From positions 1 through 10,978 of the forward strand of contig CBDUYR010000072.1 in assembly GCA_965371515.1 (NCBI GenBank): a stretch of 10,978 nucleotides of DNA. Direction: 5' to 3'. Origin of the DNA: an uncultured bacterium. GTDB lineage: Bacteria > Krumholzibacteriota > Krumholzibacteriia > Krumholzibacteriales > Krumholzibacteriaceae. The notes under the pieces are model-generated. The model worked only from the letters and a program-made list of their open reading frames with translations. It did not search any database and was not told the DNA's origin. Shown here one piece after another: positions 78 to 6,525 of the stretch. The number at the start of each line of letters is the position of its first letter. Positions within the stretch are counted from its first letter, which is position 1. Position numbers and translations under genes: made by a program.

Positions 78-1565
78 CTACGGCACCTCGTATACGTATA
101 TATCGAAGTTGCTCATCCGATGCCCTCTGAATACGATCTTCGTGCAGTCAGGCGACCAGGCGGGATCCTTCTGTTCCCATCTCTGGTCCAGGATCGTCTC
201 GAAGCCCGTACCGTCGGAGTTCATGACGCACAACCCGATGTATCCGTTTATGCTGTTGCGGTGAAAGACGATCTTGTCGTTGTTCCATCCCCAGTGAGGA
301 TTAAAATCGCCGAAACCAGTGGTCAGTACAGTCGGCTCGGTGCTCCCTCCCACCTCGATCTTGCAGATCTCGTATTCGTTGTTCTGGTAGACGACCCACC
401 TTCCGTTGTACGAGAAGGCCGGATTGTCGCCATCGGTGAGCCGGACATGACCGGCAGTCGGCCCGTACAGAAATATCGTCGGCACTGTACTGCCATCATC
501 ATCCGGGTCGTAGAACTGCCCGTAGACCATGGGATATCCCTGGTAGACCTGGTTCGCGTAGGAAGGCGCCCTGTTGCGGTCGTTGTCCGAAGTGATCGGT
601 GCTTCCCAGCATCCTCCCAACGGGCAGATCAGGAATCCGTGGTATATGTCGTATTCTCCCTCTACACCCCGTCGCGACATCCACGCCATCTCGCCTGTAC
701 TCGGCTTGATATCGGGCATGAAATCAGATACGGGATCGTGTGTCACCTGCTCCCACTCGCCGCCATCGACAGGCATGCGCCATATGTCCCAGTTGCCCGA
801 CCGTGACGAGGAGAAATAGATCATCGATCCGTCGGAGTTCCAGCAGGGATATTCTTTCTGAGAATTATCGTCAGTGAGCCGAATGATTCCCGGCGGTAGA
901 ATATCGATATGACCGGTGATTCGCCAGCGGCAGTCGACGAGGATTTCCATGCTGACAATCGCGTCCTCGGGAATACCGGCAGGAATCACGAATTCCACCT
1001 CTGTATCACTCCATTCCTCGACTGTCGCCTCATGGCCGAAGACCGTCACACGGCCGTTACCGTTGTCCGGTCCAAATCCACTCCCCTGTGCCTTGATGTT
1101 TCTCCCGCTGTATACACCCTTCGGCCAGAATCCGTCGATCGTTGCGCTCGATGTACCCTTTGTGACATTGACACAGGTCCAGTCAGACATATTGCCCGCC
1201 GTGTCGACCGCTGACATGCAGACGAGGTATCCAGCGTCCTGAACGCTGCTCGCGTCCCAGGCCGCCTCGTAGGGCGCGGCGAGGTCGTGACCCGACCAGA
1301 TCTGCTGATCGCAGAGGTCCCTCGCCTCGAAGAAGACCGTGTCGACCTCTGTGTCGTCGGTAGCCGTGCCGGCGATATCAAGCGACGAGGGAAGAGCAGA
1401 GCCGTCCGTGGGGCTGGTGATATTGACCACGGGGGCGAGCGTGTCGGCATCCCCGCCGCCGTTCCCGTCGCCCGGATCTGTGACGCCCGAGTCGCTGCTG
1501 CAGCCGATCCATACCAGAACGGATAACACAACACATGCCGTAATGAAGCTGATAACAGTTTTCAT
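78..1565 (-). CDS. Lipoprotein (495 aa) with bacterial Ig-like domain, IPT/TIG-like domain and C-terminal TolB-like (PD40/WD40) beta-propeller
   Basis: Signal peptide MKTVISFITACVVLSVLVWIG-C with lipobox-like Cys22, then a G/D/S-rich tether. Ig-like segment DTLAPVVNITSP...ATDDTEV...WDAS...AVDTAGN. IPT/TIG-like segment IKAQGSGFG...WSDTEVEFVIP. Six PD40-like blades, e.g. YPCWNSDGSMIYFSSSRSGNWDIWRM, NPAFSYNGRWVVY, DPAWSPDCTKIVF. Purine-rich GGGGGA 5' of the ATG; TAG stop at 78-80. Confidence 0.88.
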   Translation of the reverse strand: MKTVISFITACVVLSVLVWIGCSSDSGVTDPGDGNGGGDADTLAPVVNITSPTDGSALPSSLDIAGTATDDTEVDTVFFEARDLCDQQIWSGHDLAAPYEAAWDASSVQDAGYLVCMSAVDTAGNMSDWTCVNVTKGTSSATIDGFWPKGVYSGRNIKAQGSGFGPDNGNGRVTVFGHEATVEEWSDTEVEFVIPAGIPEDAIVSMEILVDCRWRITGHIDILPPGIIRLTDDNSQKEYPCWNSDGSMIYFSSSRSGNWDIWRMPVDGGEWEQVTHDPVSDFMPDIKPSTGEMAWMSRRGVEGEYDIYHGFLICPLGGCWEAPITSDNDRNRAPSYANQVYQGYPMVYGQFYDPDDDGSTVPTIFLYGPTAGHVRLTDGDNPAFSYNGRWVVYQNNEYEICKIEVGGSTEPTVLTTGFGDFNPHWGWNNDKIVFHRNSINGYIGLCVMNSDGTGFETILDQRWEQKDPAWSPDCTKIVFRGHRMSNFDIYVYEVP

Positions 1566-1744: not shown

Positions 1745-2986
1745 CTAGGGGAGCGCCCGGCTCAACTCCCAATCAAGTATCAGCATCTCGGCGGGGAGCG
1801 TCGTTTTAACCGTCCCGTCGACGGCCCCGATATCGGAAGCCGCGGGAATAACATTCTCGCCGGCCGGGATCCAGGCCGTCAGAATCACGATGCCCTCTTC
1901 TTCGAGCAGCGGCACTGACGGTTCCAGTCGAGCGATGAGTTCCCGGCGCATCGTATCGGCCGTTGCCTGGTCGCCGTTACTCTCGTAAAGTTCGATCGCC
2001 CTGATGACGTAGCCAGGACGTGACGGATCGAGAAGGATCGCCGCACGCGAGAGATGGAGCGGGATGATTATCATGCCCTCGCTGGAGGCAACTGCCGCGC
2101 CCCTGTCAAGCGCTTCGGCGACCACAGCGGGCCTGGAAAGGATCGAAAAAGCAATAATGGAAATAAAGAGCGCGACGGCAGCCCAGTTTCTCCGGGAAAC
2201 CGTTTTCCGGTTCGAAGCCCGTCCGGCCAGGCGCGCCCCATTCAGCGCCTGTACGATCCAGGCCAGCCCTCCCAGTACCACCGCCGCACTCGCACCCATC
2301 AATACATACTCAAGCGTTTCCGGCCTCACGGCGAAGGCGCCGGCATACGCGTTGAAATTCCACAGCCATGCCGCCCTCGAGAGAACGAGCAGGGAAATAA
2401 CGGTCAGGCATGCCATCCACAGAGCCGCAGCCGCGCGTTTCGATCGCCCTGCGACGAACAGCCCCATGCCCGGACAGATGATGCCGAACAGGCCCGCGGC
2501 CAACGACCCTCTGATCCAGTTGGGCGAGCGCCTCAGCCTCGTGCCCTCGTAGCGCCCGGCGAGTACGACCGCCCTGGTCCATGCGGAGAAACCGGCTATC
2601 ACCGCCACAGCCAACGCGAGAAGCATTACGGCGCCGACGGGGTTTTCCTGCGTGGACCAGTAGGAGAAGCCCCTCCACATCAATATGACGACAATGGCCA
2701 GAATCACGCTGAAGACTGAAAGTCCCGCCCAGAACCGGCTCTTGCGCCCCCTGCGGGTCGCGAGAATGGACAGCGGCCCTGTAAGGTACGAGAGTATCAG
2801 AGGAACGCCCGACTGCCTGTCATTTGTCCGCGCCTGTGATGTTCCCTGGCCGCTCCCCCCATCGCCTCCGGAAGACCGGAGATAATCGGGAAGTTCATTC
2901 TCTGCCTCCCCGTACGAAGAGGACCTTTTGGCTTTGCCTTTCAGACTCTTAGGATCGATGACATATACCTTGTTCTGTCCGCTCAT
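1745..2986 (-). CDS. Hypothetical multi-pass inner-membrane protein (about 413 aa, about 7 hydrophobic segments, C-terminal TPR-like helices)
   Basis: Long ORF with hydrophobic stretches separated by Arg-rich loops (TRRGRKSR, TRLRRSP, SNRKTVSRR). Start moved from 3037 to ATG 2986, which is preceded by the SD-like GAGGGGGAAACG. No family recognised with confidence. Confidence 0.8.
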   Translation of the reverse strand: MSGQNKVYVIDPKSLKGKAKRSSSYGEAENELPDYLRSSGGDGGSGQGTSQARTNDRQSGVPLILSYLTGPLSILATRRGRKSRFWAGLSVFSVILAIVVILMWRGFSYWSTQENPVGAVMLLALAVAVIAGFSAWTRAVVLAGRYEGTRLRRSPNWIRGSLAAGLFGIICPGMGLFVAGRSKRAAAALWMACLTVISLLVLSRAAWLWNFNAYAGAFAVRPETLEYVLMGASAAVVLGGLAWIVQALNGARLAGRASNRKTVSRRNWAAVALFISIIAFSILSRPAVVAEALDRGAAVASSEGMIIIPLHLSRAAILLDPSRPGYVIRAIELYESNGDQATADTMRRELIARLEPSVPLLEEEGIVILTAWIPAGENVIPAASDIGAVDGTVKTTLPAEMLILDWELSRALP

Positions 2987-3083
2987 CGTTTCCCCCTCTG
3001 CTGCCGATGACGAATCAACGGCAGAATTCAATGTCACACGGGAGAGAATTAATCAATATTCGCTCTGGTAACGGGGGATTTCG

Positions 3084-3098
3084 GCAAGTTCCATGCCC
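3084..3098 (-). promoter_or_regulatory. Sigma54 (RpoN)-type -24/-12 promoter candidate
   Basis: Minus strand GGGCATGGAACTTGC compared with consensus TGGCACGNNNNTTGC, with exact GG-N10-GC spacing. Intergenic, about 100 nt upstream of ATG 2986 and in the correct orientation. Confidence 0.55.
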
Positions 3099-3229
3099 GG
3101 GGCGGGAGTGCACGAAACGGGCAAGAAACTATCGTAAACAACGGCGGCATTATGGGTAAAACGGGAAATCACAAGGAAGGTCAGGACCGGCATTTTTCGG
3201 GCCCCGGAATGCGGTATCATGCGGCCTAA

Positions 3230-3278
3230 AGGCGTAAAAAAGACCCAGACCTGCAACTCAGGCCTCTATCTCGCCCGC
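3230..3278 (-). promoter_or_regulatory. Bacterial SECIS-like stem-loop 3' of the in-frame UGA
   Basis: RNA after the UGA: GC GGGCG AGAU AG AGGCCUG AGUUG CAGGUCU GG GUCU UUUUUA CGCCU. A 7-bp apical stem (3265-3259 with 3253-3247) closes a 5-nt loop AGUUG that begins 20 nt after the UGA and has G at its second position. Lower pairings AGAU/GUCU and GGGCG/CGCCU are possible. Confidence 0.7.
3236..3271 (-). terminator. Possible intrinsic terminator coincident with the SECIS-like hairpin
   Basis: The same hairpin runs straight into six T residues (3241-3236) at the end of the two-gene unit. Confidence 0.45.
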
Positions 3279-4235
3279 TCAGGTGAAGCCCGCGCCGGCG
3301 GTGCAGGTATAGCAGTGGTCGGCAGTGGCTATCGGGCTGCCCGGCTCCGGCGGCCCCGCCATCTCGGAAACATGGACCCTTTCCCCTCCCATGTGAAGCC
3401 CCACGGCTATGTTGAAATCGCAGTCGTAGAGGTACCCGTCCCAGTCGACCGACACGAGGGTCCGGCACATCACCGCATCCGTGGCGCAGGGATTGAAGCC
3501 CTCAACCAGTTTGCCGTAATAGGAGTCGAGAGCGCCCCTCTTCTCGAGCCACTTGCGGAACCTTCCGAGCGGCACGTTGGCAAAGTTGAACAGATTGCTG
3601 AATTGGAGCCCCCACTTCCTCTGCATCACCTCGCGGAACCTCTCCCCCATCTCTTTCTGGGCCGGGGGAAGGAAGGCTCCGGCGGGATTGGAAACGATGT
3701 CGAACTCGAGCCCGGTGCCCGGCTCGCCGTATCCGAGGGAGTTGAGCCGCTCGATCGCCTCTAGGCTCTTCTCGAAAACATGGTCACCGCGCTGCGAATC
3801 GGTCTGCTTCGCGTTGAGCGACGGCAACGACGCGATAATCGCTATCCCGTTCGAGCGAAGGAGTTCGAGGAGCTCCACCCTCCCACCTCCAGCTATCGAT
3901 GTGAGATTGCAGCGGAATATCACGCGGGCCGCAAGAGACGCGACGCCCTCGACAAGCCTCGTGATATTAGGATTCATCTCGGGAGCGCCTCCGGTAATGT
4001 CGATGATATCGAAGTTGCAACGCCCGACGTAATCGATCACGGCCTCCATCGTAACGAGGTCCATGATCTCCTTGCGCGAGGGACCTGCCTCCAGATGGCA
4101 GTGCAGACAGGTCTGGTTGCAGAGCAGCCCGACGTTGATCTGGAGGGTCGTCGTATGTCCCCTCACCAGCTCGATATCGTGATCGGCCAGCGTCTGCCGG
4201 AAGGGGGGGATTGCAATGCCGTCGTTTATGTCCAT
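3258..4235 (-). CDS. arsS: ArsS-family radical SAM (seleno)protein (arsenosugar biosynthesis type, DUF3641 C-terminus); 325 aa with probable selenocysteine at codon 319 (TGA 3281-3279)
   Basis: Family motifs TLQINVGLLCNQTCLHCHLEAGP (CxxxCxxC), DITGGAPEMNP, ASLP, QRG..VFEKS, AGAFLPP.Q, F..LF...N.P.GRF, VMCRTLVSVDWDGYLYDCDFN and HCYTCTAGAGFT. After the TGA the frame continues GCG GGC GAG ATA GAG GCC TGA (AGEIEA-stop). The likely start is ATG 4235, 4 nt after the upstream TAA. Confidence 0.9.
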
Positions 4236-4239
4236 TACT

Positions 4240-4572
4240 TTACATCGAAAGCTTCTCGGCAACGTTACGCATCTGAATGCCGTGGACGAGGGAGGCCCCT
4301 CCCCGTATCGCAGCGGTGACGTGCACCGCCTCGGTCATCTCGGCAACGCTCGAACCCTTTTCGAGGCAGGCCTGCGTATATGCATCGATGCAGTAAGGGC
4401 ACTGGATCGCGTGCGCTACGGCGAGAGCAATGAGCGCCTTTTCGCGCTCAGAAAGCTCGCCCTCGGCGAAAACAGCCCCGTACCAGTCAAAATATTTCTT
4501 CGCCAGTTCCGGCGCTTCCTCACCGATCTCGGCAAACTTCGGCAGGTCTTCAGGCTTGTAATACGTATCCAC
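4240..4572 (-). CDS. AhpD/carboxymuconolactone decarboxylase-like CxxC protein of the family found next to ArsS-type radical SAM genes (110 aa)
   Basis: YY.PEDL.KF..IG...PELA..YF..Y..VF.EG.LS.REKALIALAVAHAIQCPYCIDAY...AVHV.AAIRGGASLVHG.QM. SD AAAGGAG lies 7 nt before GTG 4572 but only 1 nt before ATG 4578, so the GTG start is preferred. Confidence 0.9.
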   Translation of the reverse strand: MDTYYKPEDLPKFAEIGEEAPELAKKYFDWYGAVFAEGELSEREKALIALAVAHAIQCPYCIDAYTQACLEKGSSVAEMTEAVHVTAAIRGGASLVHGIQMRNVAEKLSM

Positions 4573-4626
4573 CCGCATACTCCTTTCATGACGATTACTG
4601 ATTTTCGCGAGATTTCCCCAACTGAC

Positions 4627-4639
4627 CAGGGTGACCCTG
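4627..4639. promoter_or_regulatory. Perfect inverted repeat CAGGGT-G-ACCCTG, operator candidate
   Basis: 6-1-6 palindrome located right at the predicted transcription start (about 4640) of the AhpD-like/arsS unit. Confidence 0.35.
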
Positions 4640-4646
4640 TAATCTC

Positions 4647-4675
4647 ATTCTATACATTGCGCAGCGGGAAGGCAA
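4647..4675 (-). promoter_or_regulatory. Sigma70-type promoter for the AhpD-like/arsS unit
   Basis: Minus strand TTGCCT (4675-4670), 17-nt spacer, TAGAAT (4652-4647), in the divergent intergenic region. Confidence 0.6.
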
Positions 4676-4705
4676 TATGTCATTCCTGCCTGCGGTGTTC
4701 TCGGC

Positions 4706-4734
4706 TTTTCCAAAACGTCTAAGTGGGATATAAT
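4706..4734 (+). promoter_or_regulatory. Sigma70-type promoter for tamAB, possibly giving a leaderless transcript
   Basis: Perfect TATAAT at 4729-4734 with a weak -35 (TTTTCC, 4706-4711) at 17-nt spacing. The ATG follows 6 nt after the -10 box. Confidence 0.55.
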
Positions 4735-4740
4735 ACTTCA

Positions 4741-6525
4741 ATGCCGCGCCTTCTCATCATACTGACGTTTCTGGCCTTTGCCGTACCCGTCCATGCGGAC
4801 GAAGATCCCGCAATATGGAATGAGGTATCAAACTATCGCGGCTGGAAGGTCAAATCACTTTCACTCACCGGCATCGACAAGACATACATCAGTGAGCTTG
4901 AAAAAGGACTCGAGCTCGAGGACGATGAGGCGGCCCTCTACGAGCGCAGCCTAAGGAGGGACGTCGACAGGATCCGTCTCTTTCTCGCGCTGCGCGGTTA
5001 CCCGTACAGCGTCGTAACACCCTCCGTATCTGCGAGAGAGGATAAACGTCAGGTCGAGGTGGTTCTGGATATCGAACTCGGCCCTCCCGTCAAAGTCTCG
5101 TCTCTCGAGATAAACGGCCTTCCGGAACATTTCAGCGATGAAGTCCGGGAGAATGTGAAGACGAAGGCCGGCATGATCTTTTCCGACGGCATCATGGTCG
5201 CCGATGAGCAGGCTGTTCTCGAGATCCTGAGAAAGGCAGGGCATGCCCGCGCCCGCTCTGTCTCATCCATCGAGATGACAGACACGACGACTGTAAGGGT
5301 ACGGTTCGATATAGAGCCGGGGGCGGTCTATTACTTCGACAGCTTCCGGGTAAGCGGGGCGAGCGAGGACCTCAACAAGCTGGCTCTGATCTCTATCAAC
5401 ATCGATAAGGGTGAACGCTTCGAGCCGAAGACAGTCAGCGACGCGAGGGATAACATCTCGGATCTGCAGCTTTTCAGGCAAATCCGCATTTCGCTTGAGG
5501 ATACCGCGCCGGACTCGCTGGCAATAATCGTCGAGCTGTCGGAAAGGCAGCATCGCCTCATTGAATTCGCCGGAGGATACTGGTCGGATGACGGCTTCAG
5601 CGCAAGGGTCCGATGGAGGCATTCCAACCTCTTCAAGAGGGGCCGTGGATCGAGCATCGAACTCTCCTATACCCAGTACAAGAGGACCGGCAGGTGGGTA
5701 TCGTGGTGGCCCGCGCTGTTCAATGCCAGAGTGGTCGGAACGCTGCGCATAGGAATCGACGACATCAGCGAGGACAGCTACGATAAGAGAGCGCCCGGCA
5801 TAGGCGCCGGCCTCAGCTTTGCCCACACCCGCACGATGAAATCATCGATCGGATACGTGATCGAGGTGGCGAGTTACACGATCAATACGACCGAAAAAGA
5901 ATATTTCGAGGACCCCGAGGGACCCGTTACGTGGTTGTTCTATCGTTTCGTGCGGGACGGAACGGACGACCGGATCAATCCGACGAAGGGTACCTATTCA
6001 TGGCTAAATCTCCAATTCGGTCCGAAGGGCGGAGTGTCGAACAGCAGTTATTTTCTCGCTGAGATCTCCGGAACGGCTCACATCCCGGTCACAAGGAAAC
6101 TCGGGTTCGCGACGAACCTGCGCCTCGGATCAGCGGCACCGATAACGCCCGCGCTGGTGCTTCTCCCCGACAAGCGATTCTATCCGGGTGGTTCGACGTC
6201 TCACAGGGGGTTTAACAGGAGAAAACTCGGGCCGCTCGACGAAAACGGCCTGCCTCTCGGAGGCGAATTGATGTTGACCGGCTTCGTCGAGTTACGGTTC
6301 CCGTTGTTCTGGAAATTCAACGGAGCCGTATTCGCCGACTACGGACAGGCCTGGCGGACACATGGCGATTTTACATGGGACAATATCGAGATCGCCGTCG
6401 GCCCCGCGATAAGGATCATGACCCCTGTCGGGCCGCTTCGCTTCGACCTCGGTTACAGGCTGACCGACTACGAGCCGAGCGAACCTGAATTCGCGTTCCA
6501 CTTCGCCATCGGATACCCGATGTGA
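4741..6525 (+). CDS. tamA: TamA-like Omp85-family outer membrane protein (signal peptide, three POTRA-like domains, beta-barrel; 594 aa)
   Basis: Sec signal MPRLLIILTFLAFAVPVHA. Three POTRA-like units (VKSLSLTG...RGYP, VSSLEING...AGHARA, FDSFRVSG...LQLFRQI). Barrel motifs GYWSDDG, HSNLFKRG, DDRINPTKG, RFYPGGSTSHRGF, GG......VELRFPL, AVFADYG, G..IR..TPVGPLRFDLG, FHFAIGYPM. Lies directly upstream of a TamB gene. Confidence 0.88.
   Translation: MPRLLIILTFLAFAVPVHADEDPAIWNEVSNYRGWKVKSLSLTGIDKTYISELEKGLELEDDEAALYERSLRRDVDRIRLFLALRGYPYSVVTPSVSAREDKRQVEVVLDIELGPPVKVSSLEINGLPEHFSDEVRENVKTKAGMIFSDGIMVADEQAVLEILRKAGHARARSVSSIEMTDTTTVRVRFDIEPGAVYYFDSFRVSGASEDLNKLALISINIDKGERFEPKTVSDARDNISDLQLFRQIRISLEDTAPDSLAIIVELSERQHRLIEFAGGYWSDDGFSARVRWRHSNLFKRGRGSSIELSYTQYKRTGRWVSWWPALFNARVVGTLRIGIDDISEDSYDKRAPGIGAGLSFAHTRTMKSSIGYVIEVASYTINTTEKEYFEDPEGPVTWLFYRFVRDGTDDRINPTKGTYSWLNLQFGPKGGVSNSSYFLAEISGTAHIPVTRKLGFATNLRLGSAAPITPALVLLPDKRFYPGGSTSHRGFNRRKLGPLDENGLPLGGELMLTGFVELRFPLFWKFNGAVFADYGQAWRTHGDFTWDNIEIAVGPAIRIMTPVGPLRFDLGYRLTDYEPSEPEFAFHFAIGYPM

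Follow-up and report, generated by a model that had tools for sequence, protein, structure and literature searches.

A probable selenocysteine codon close to the 3' end of a radical SAM gene of the arsS family in an uncultured member of the Krumholzibacteriaceae

Does the TGA codon that closes the apparent reading frame of an arsS-like gene end the protein, or is it decoded as selenocysteine (Sec)? The question was raised by a window of 10,978 bp, the whole stretch of DNA that was analysed, which is contig C72 of the genome of an uncultured bacterium of the Krumholzibacteriaceae (3.08 Mb, scored 99.6% complete). At the codons concerned the minus strand reads CAC TGC TAT ACC TGC ACC GCC GGC GCG GGC TTC ACC TGA GCG GGC GAG ATA GAG GCC TGA, in agreement with the original prediction, and with the first TGA translated as U the gene (4235-3258) ends HCYTCTAGAGFT-U319-AGEIEA-stop, with CxxC-x7-U spacing (Table 1). 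Assignment to the ArsS family, TIGR04167, also held, with 359.9 bits for the truncated protein (profile positions 4–297) and 368 bits for the protein read through (positions 4–303 of 303) against a cut-off of 300, the read-through carrying the match to the last position of the profile. Two Pfam domains were identified, PF04055 in the N-terminal part, which contains the CxxxCxxC motif, and the Cys-rich PF12345 (DUF3641) in the C-terminal part. The start at ATG 4235 is supported by the closest database homologues, which likewise have 318 amino acids up to the TGA.

The arsS gene starts 4 nt downstream of the end of a gene assigned to TIGR04169, a model named 'arsenosugar biosynthesis-associated peroxidase-like protein' and the usual companion of the arsS family. 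By inspection of ORF translations, a TIGR04169-like gene also precedes arsS in loci L043, L044 and L045. The other long reading frames of the window include one for a 430-aa multi-pass membrane protein (1745-3037, minus strand) without a Pfam or NCBIfam match, and an ORF resembling it comes after arsS in both same-genus genomes (L042, L043). They also include one for a 495-aa probable lipoprotein with Big_7, TIG and PD40/TolB-like propeller repeats (78-1565, minus strand) and one for a BamA/TamA-like Omp85 protein (4723-6525, plus strand) that is divergent from the arsS pair. Beyond the latter no complete long plus-strand ORF was listed, and the contig may stop within a long gene.

Table 1. 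Positions of the features of the arsS locus (window coordinates) and of the selenium machinery genes of the source genome (contig coordinates)
Feature	Position	Strand	Basis
AhpD/CMD-like protein, 112 aa	4240..4578	-	TIGR04169, 193 bits, cut-off 120
arsS coding sequence including the predicted read-through, 325-aa radical SAM protein	3258..4235	-	TIGR04167; Pfam Radical_SAM and DUF3641
Radical SAM motif CxxxCxxC, C39/C43/C46	4098..4121	-	Invariant in 85 aligned sequences
Cys250, extra cysteine seen only in Sec-type homologues	3486..3488	-	Counts in Sec and Cys forms
SPASM/twitch-type C257-x9-G267-x4-C272, predicted auxiliary Fe-S ligands	3420..3467	-	Invariant; weak anSME profile match
C308-x2-C311	3303..3314	-	Invariant, 85/85
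TGA probably read as selenocysteine, U319	3279..3281	-	Cys in aligned homologues; TGA in metagenome loci
Six codons past Sec, predicted to be translated, AGEIEA (family consensus GGAIxx)	3261..3278	-	Codon-position pattern; in-frame length variation
Predicted true stop TGA, in the SECIS 5' arm and first loop base	3258..3260	-	Stop-codon variation in relatives
Predicted bacterial SECIS apical hairpin, 7-bp stem, 5-nt loop AGUUG at 3258-3254	3247..3265	-	bSECIS constraints; conserved core
selA	C4:17556-18923		Source genome
selB	C22:21450-23318		Source genome
tRNA-Sec (selC)	C12:40847-40944		Source genome
selD (L008)	C5:35926-36852		Source genome

The window by itself gives weak evidence for Sec, and it is comparison with homologues that lifts the case far above chance. 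The column of U319 was occupied by Cys in all 42 aligned homologues with an open frame. A metagenome scan with the pattern HCYTCTAGxGFT, in which the following codon was left free, returned at least 119 loci, and removal of four duplicates left 115; among these distinct loci in the matches listed, the codon after GFT was TGA in 113, TCA in one and TGT in one, while TAA or TAG, the codons that the original prediction had named as contrary evidence at this position, occurred in none. The true stops of the Cys forms, on the other hand, were mixed (TGA 20, TAA 12 and TAG 10; n=42). The reading of the first TGA as a real stop, according to which the protein would end in GFT and have lost its last cysteine, with the hairpin downstream acting as an intrinsic terminator, is disfavoured because true stops drift to TAA and TAG, as they do in the Cys forms. 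What speaks for a real stop is that TGA is the commonest stop of the source genome (1293 of 2268 long frames) and that all 120 nearest listed database proteins terminate at the U319 column, some of them under NCBI's ArsS name, but such protein ends reflect gene calling, and the database may hold few U-containing records. The expectation that standard gene callers would truncate the protein was thereby borne out. Further comparison came from 301 genomes of the Desulfobacterota, the phylum of a Desulfurivibrionaceae record, 112 of which carried TIGR04167 and 40 of which had an arsS interrupted by an in-frame TGA (41 copies in all). This TGA fell in the U319 column in 40 of 40 retrieved copies, the 41st copy being locus L044, and four copies inside the Sec clade had Cys in that column, which also argues against a real stop. 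We therefore assign a probability of about 0.93 to the reading that the first TGA of this ArsS family member is decoded as selenocysteine, as originally predicted, on the strength of the Cys column, the TGA count among the listed loci, the coding tail, the SECIS element and the Sec machinery; a real stop at this codon is very improbable.

Single loci depart from the common pattern. The codon in the Sec column is TCA in metagenome locus L058, and in L089 U is directly followed by C. Loci L210 (G263:C31) and L241 (G292:C14), which fall outside the main Sec branch, also show TGA in the Sec column, in the motifs GSSU and GSHU; Cys may have changed to Sec independently in them, or L241 may be a truncated copy.

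Evolution of the six codons after the first TGA is that of a protein, which is difficult to reconcile with a stop in front of them. In the 98 listed metagenome loci with the commonest hairpin offset, the entropy at third positions of codons 1–5 was 1.35–1.96 bits, whereas positions 1 and 2 of codons 1, 2 and 4 were near-invariant (0–0.28 bits), and hairpin offsets among the listed loci were 16, 19, 22 or 25 nt, all steps of three. Variable third positions, conserved first and second positions and length changes in threes together indicate that the tail is coding. As to its end, it is conceivable that both TGA codons encode Sec and that the protein extends past 3258, since the second TGA was kept in 111 of 115 metagenome loci among the matches listed and the frame beyond it runs on for another 35 codons of the window without a stop. 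However, in the 40 genome-sampled Desulfobacterota loci the first stop after Sec was TGA in 26, TAG in 13 and TAA in one, with an equivalent hairpin mostly kept; in the listed metagenome loci conservation collapsed right after the hairpin; and Cys forms end at roughly the same place. Protein extension through two Sec residues is thus extremely improbable, and the TAG and TAA codons at the same place in relatives led us to reject Sec at 3260-3258. Conservation of the second TGA is best explained by the RNA stem of which it is part, given these stop-codon swaps in the 40 relatives, and judging from the comparison the second TGA is the true stop of arsS. In one metagenome locus, L093, a TAG is located one codon before the hairpin.

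The SECIS-like hairpin of the original prediction proved to be real (3265-3247) and compliant with the bacterial SECIS (bSECIS) model, but it starts inside the tail, straddles the second TGA and runs past the boundary at 3258 that it had been given. Its loop starts 20 nt past the UGA, the first loop base being the A of the second UGA, and the hairpin has an energy of -8.7 kcal/mol; a weaker lower stem is predicted, in which 3272-3268 would pair with 3244-3240. The bSECIS model of Zhang and Gladyshev (2005), as restated in PMC13188914, requires a loop of 3–9 nt, an upper stem of 4–16 bp, a G in the first two loop positions, a spacing of 16–37 nt and an energy of at most -7.5 kcal/mol. These constraints were coded in our own implementation, which is distinct from bSECISearch, and the arsS hairpin agreed with every one of them. 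It differs from the consensus hairpin, which lies wholly within the coding region, in straddling the stop of its gene, as a consequence of the position of Sec seven residues from the protein end. The 26-nt hairpin folded better than 197 of 200 shuffles (z -2.7), while the folding of seven longer stretches of 40–85 nt after the UGA did not differ significantly from shuffles (z -1.0 to +0.9); the SECIS-model score of the hairpin was matched by 61 of 2000 shuffles.

The hairpin is conserved among homologues, with the core CCUGAG-N1-3-C(A/G)GG present in 103 of 115 metagenome homologues among the matches listed. Of the 109 TGA forms with enough downstream sequence for the test, 93 had the best hairpin loop 20–21 nt after the codon, against none of 43 Cys forms, although a relaxed SECIS test at -3 kcal/mol was also positive in 16 of the 43 Cys forms, at scattered positions. 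The arm variants CUCA/UGAG, CUAA/UUAG and UUGA/UCAA preserve the stem; these were tallied by script, as a MAFFT DNA alignment left the variable loop ungapped and was not used for pair counts. A terminator-like character of the hairpin, which would suit a real stop at the first TGA, was apparent in that it was the sole terminator-like site scored in 2900-4800 and that a T run is found 8–9 nt past it in three genus copies. Most of the homologous hairpins in the listed metagenome loci have no T run after them, which weighs against the real stop, and a second role of the hairpin in termination is possible, though not general in the clade. A scan of the source genome for UGA followed by this hairpin type gave 102 raw matches, and among the 23 listed after a frame filter none besides arsS resembled a selenoprotein by eye, suggesting that the arsS hairpin type is not a genome-wide consensus. 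Metagenome locus L134 is a Cys form that has retained the hairpin.

The genes required for Sec insertion, whose presence the original prediction had made a check on its claim, were all found in the 99.6% complete genome (selA, selB, selD and tRNA-Sec; Table 1). The selD gene is itself a selenoprotein gene, with an in-frame TGA at its GU motif (SCSGUASK) and a hairpin unlike that of arsS. Both same-genus genomes having arsS share the same arrangement as well as selB. In the Desulfobacterota sample, 37 of the 40 genomes with a TGA form had selA and the other three had selB, but the co-occurrence with selA is nearly uninformative because 282 of the 301 genomes have that gene. By the standard bacterial mechanism, SelB carrying Sec-tRNA would recognise the loop, which contains a G and lies 20 nt past the UGA, and insert Sec319, after which the ribosome would melt the hairpin, translate the six codons and terminate at the UGA in the 5' arm. 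Arsenic genes of the source genome were found on a contig other than that of arsS, as an arsR-arsC-arsM cluster on C32 that includes a Cys-type general ArsM (C32:6736-7509, L199); an adjacent TIGR04282/TIGR04283 pair is likewise located on another contig (C5:5173-7419). The arsenosugar-type ArsM model had no match over its cut-off in any of the four genomes searched, the source genome included. With a general ArsM only and no arsenosugar-type ArsM over cut-off, any substrate named for the GFT-U clade is provisional.

What Sec319 may do was considered from the cysteines of the protein and its predicted fold. Besides those of the radical SAM motif, five chalcogen positions are invariant, namely C257, C272, C308, C311 and 319. 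The motif of C257 and C272 corresponds to the CX9-15GX4C with which SPASM/twitch domains start (PMC6231123), and the C-terminal part of the TIGR04167 profile gave a weak match to the SPASM domain of anSME (E 0.007). A search of PDB sequences for an ArsS structure gave 0 matches, and the best fold matches of the ArsS model were SkfB, SuiB and BlsE. The C-x9-G-x4-C hairpin motif with a later CxxC is shared with SkfB, BtrN, anSME, SuiB and BlsE, at 13–17% identity and TM-scores of about 0.4–0.57. The auxiliary cluster of BtrN is fully ligated by four cysteines (PMC6231123), and on this analogy C257/C272 and C308/C311 are likely to bind a BtrN-like, twitch-type auxiliary Fe-S cluster with four Cys ligands, while C39/C43/C46, to judge from their motif, would hold the SAM-cleaving cluster.

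The Cys/Cys/Sec triad of the original prediction, in which Sec319, C308 and C311 would form a three-ligand As(III) site, survives in its residues and their spacing, but the proposed binding role is doubtful, as the CxxC is more likely an Fe-S ligand together with C257/C272. The three positions are invariant and near one another in sequence, and ArsL offers a precedent with a C-terminal RCCLKC motif that binds arsenite and no Fe-S cluster (10.1101/2024.02.01.577332). We nevertheless regard the triad as unlikely, since it would strip C257 and C272 of their partners and since the ArsL substrate is inorganic arsenite, whereas that of ArsS is DMAs(III). The AlphaFold model, which is cofactor-free, had a mean pLDDT of 93.4, falling to 67 for the block 311-320 and below 50 for residues 320-325. 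Dimethylarsinous acid, DMAs(III), offers as a matter of general chemistry one coordination position free for a thiol or selenol, which suits a single selenolate tether more than it does a triad. The ArsS reaction, adenosylation of DMAs(III), is redox-neutral, with an As-centred radical passing an electron back to the cluster (PMC13598754). Sec319 on its flexible tail may thus capture dimethyl-As(III) as an As-Se adduct and offer it to the 5'-deoxyadenosyl radical; we hold this tether tentatively, at slightly less than even odds.

Alternatively, Sec319 could, instead of tethering the substrate, help to ligate the auxiliary Fe-S cluster or form a redox couple with Cys250, which appears rather unlikely. 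Five invariant Cys/Sec positions in the C-terminal domain, and the variation in ligating cysteines among SPASM/twitch domains (PMC6231123), are compatible with a ligand role. However, the four other invariant cysteines can complete the ligation of a cluster by themselves, as four do in BtrN, and no part of the cluster-free model is less ordered than the Sec tail. As for a redox partnership, Cys250 was present in 26 of 44 Sec forms and in none of 62 Cys forms, but a strict Sec-Cys250 partnership was rejected because the other 18 Sec forms lack this residue. Cys250 was also present in 104 of 105 parsable metagenome TGA loci among the matches listed, a set chosen by motif and with duplicates included. 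On these sequence counts the association of Cys250 with Sec is a lead only, as kinship explains much of it.

That the Sec call would be new, as the original prediction implied, did not stand. NCBI already names TIGR04167 'arsenosugar biosynthesis radical SAM (seleno)protein ArsS', and both PMC9312934 and PMC13188914 count the family among the predicted selenoproteins, a status that it has had since 2005 (reference 13 of PMC13188914). The call in the source arsS is accordingly correct but ordinary, the family having been catalogued. Like the listed TIGR04167 selenoproteins, the source protein scores over the cut-off and has the same domains, a GxxU motif (GFTU), a single Sec and an upstream TIGR04169 partner; it differs in its host, which lies outside the Desulfobacterota and has class relatives with Cys forms. 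The listing gives Sec insertion for the family as predicted and not as experimentally verified. Characterised ArsS is a DDMAA synthase that adenosylates DMAs(III), and ArsS of Synechocystis works with ArsM (PMC13598754; PMC8552651; 10.64898/2026.04.29.721666). The source arsS shares with it the equivalog family and the invariant cysteines but belongs to a separate GFT-U clade about 36–52% identical to Cys forms and, unlike characterised ArsS, has the extra Cys250, no adjacent arsM and no arsenosugar-type ArsM over cut-off. A literature search, outside whose scope lay the primary ArsS papers, found no paper on the role of Sec in C-As bond formation by ArsS, on Cys250 or on the stop inside this SECIS; the main texts of the Haft preprint and of BSepDB make no mention of ArsS or TIGR04167, and their supplements may list the family or gene. 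The practical value of the result is an annotation fix: the nearest database proteins are without Sec and tail, and expression of such truncated entries would yield an enzyme lacking a chalcogen residue that is otherwise invariant.

The history of the GFT-U clade was considered from a quick tree of 106 copies (2 of 108 were left out), built with the Sec column excluded. One branch with SH-aLRT support of 100 contained 42 of the 44 Sec forms and four Cys forms. The three copies from the host genus nested in this branch among copies from the Desulfobacterota sample, and the nine Cys copies found in the family and class of the host fell outside it, a placement which suggests that the host genus acquired the Sec-type arsS horizontally. 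A joint reading of these observations, improbable as a whole, would make the GFT-U clade a functionally distinct ArsS branch of anaerobes that lack arsenosugar-type ArsM. In this branch Sec319 and Cys250 would act as a selenylsulfide redox pair that takes up an organoarsenic or other metalloid substrate and lets it go again, the AhpD-like protein encoded alongside would recycle the pair, and both genes would have passed together from Desulfobacterota to the host genus, bringing a portable SECIS with the stop codon built into it. If true, it would describe a radical SAM enzyme that tethers its substrate through selenium. The four Cys copies in the Sec branch are GFT-C forms (L254, L258, L260 and L045), all of them without Cys250. 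L254 keeps the 5' half of the hairpin (CCTGAG) without its partner arm, like a SECIS decayed after a Sec-to-Cys change, and three of the genomes with these copies still possess selA.
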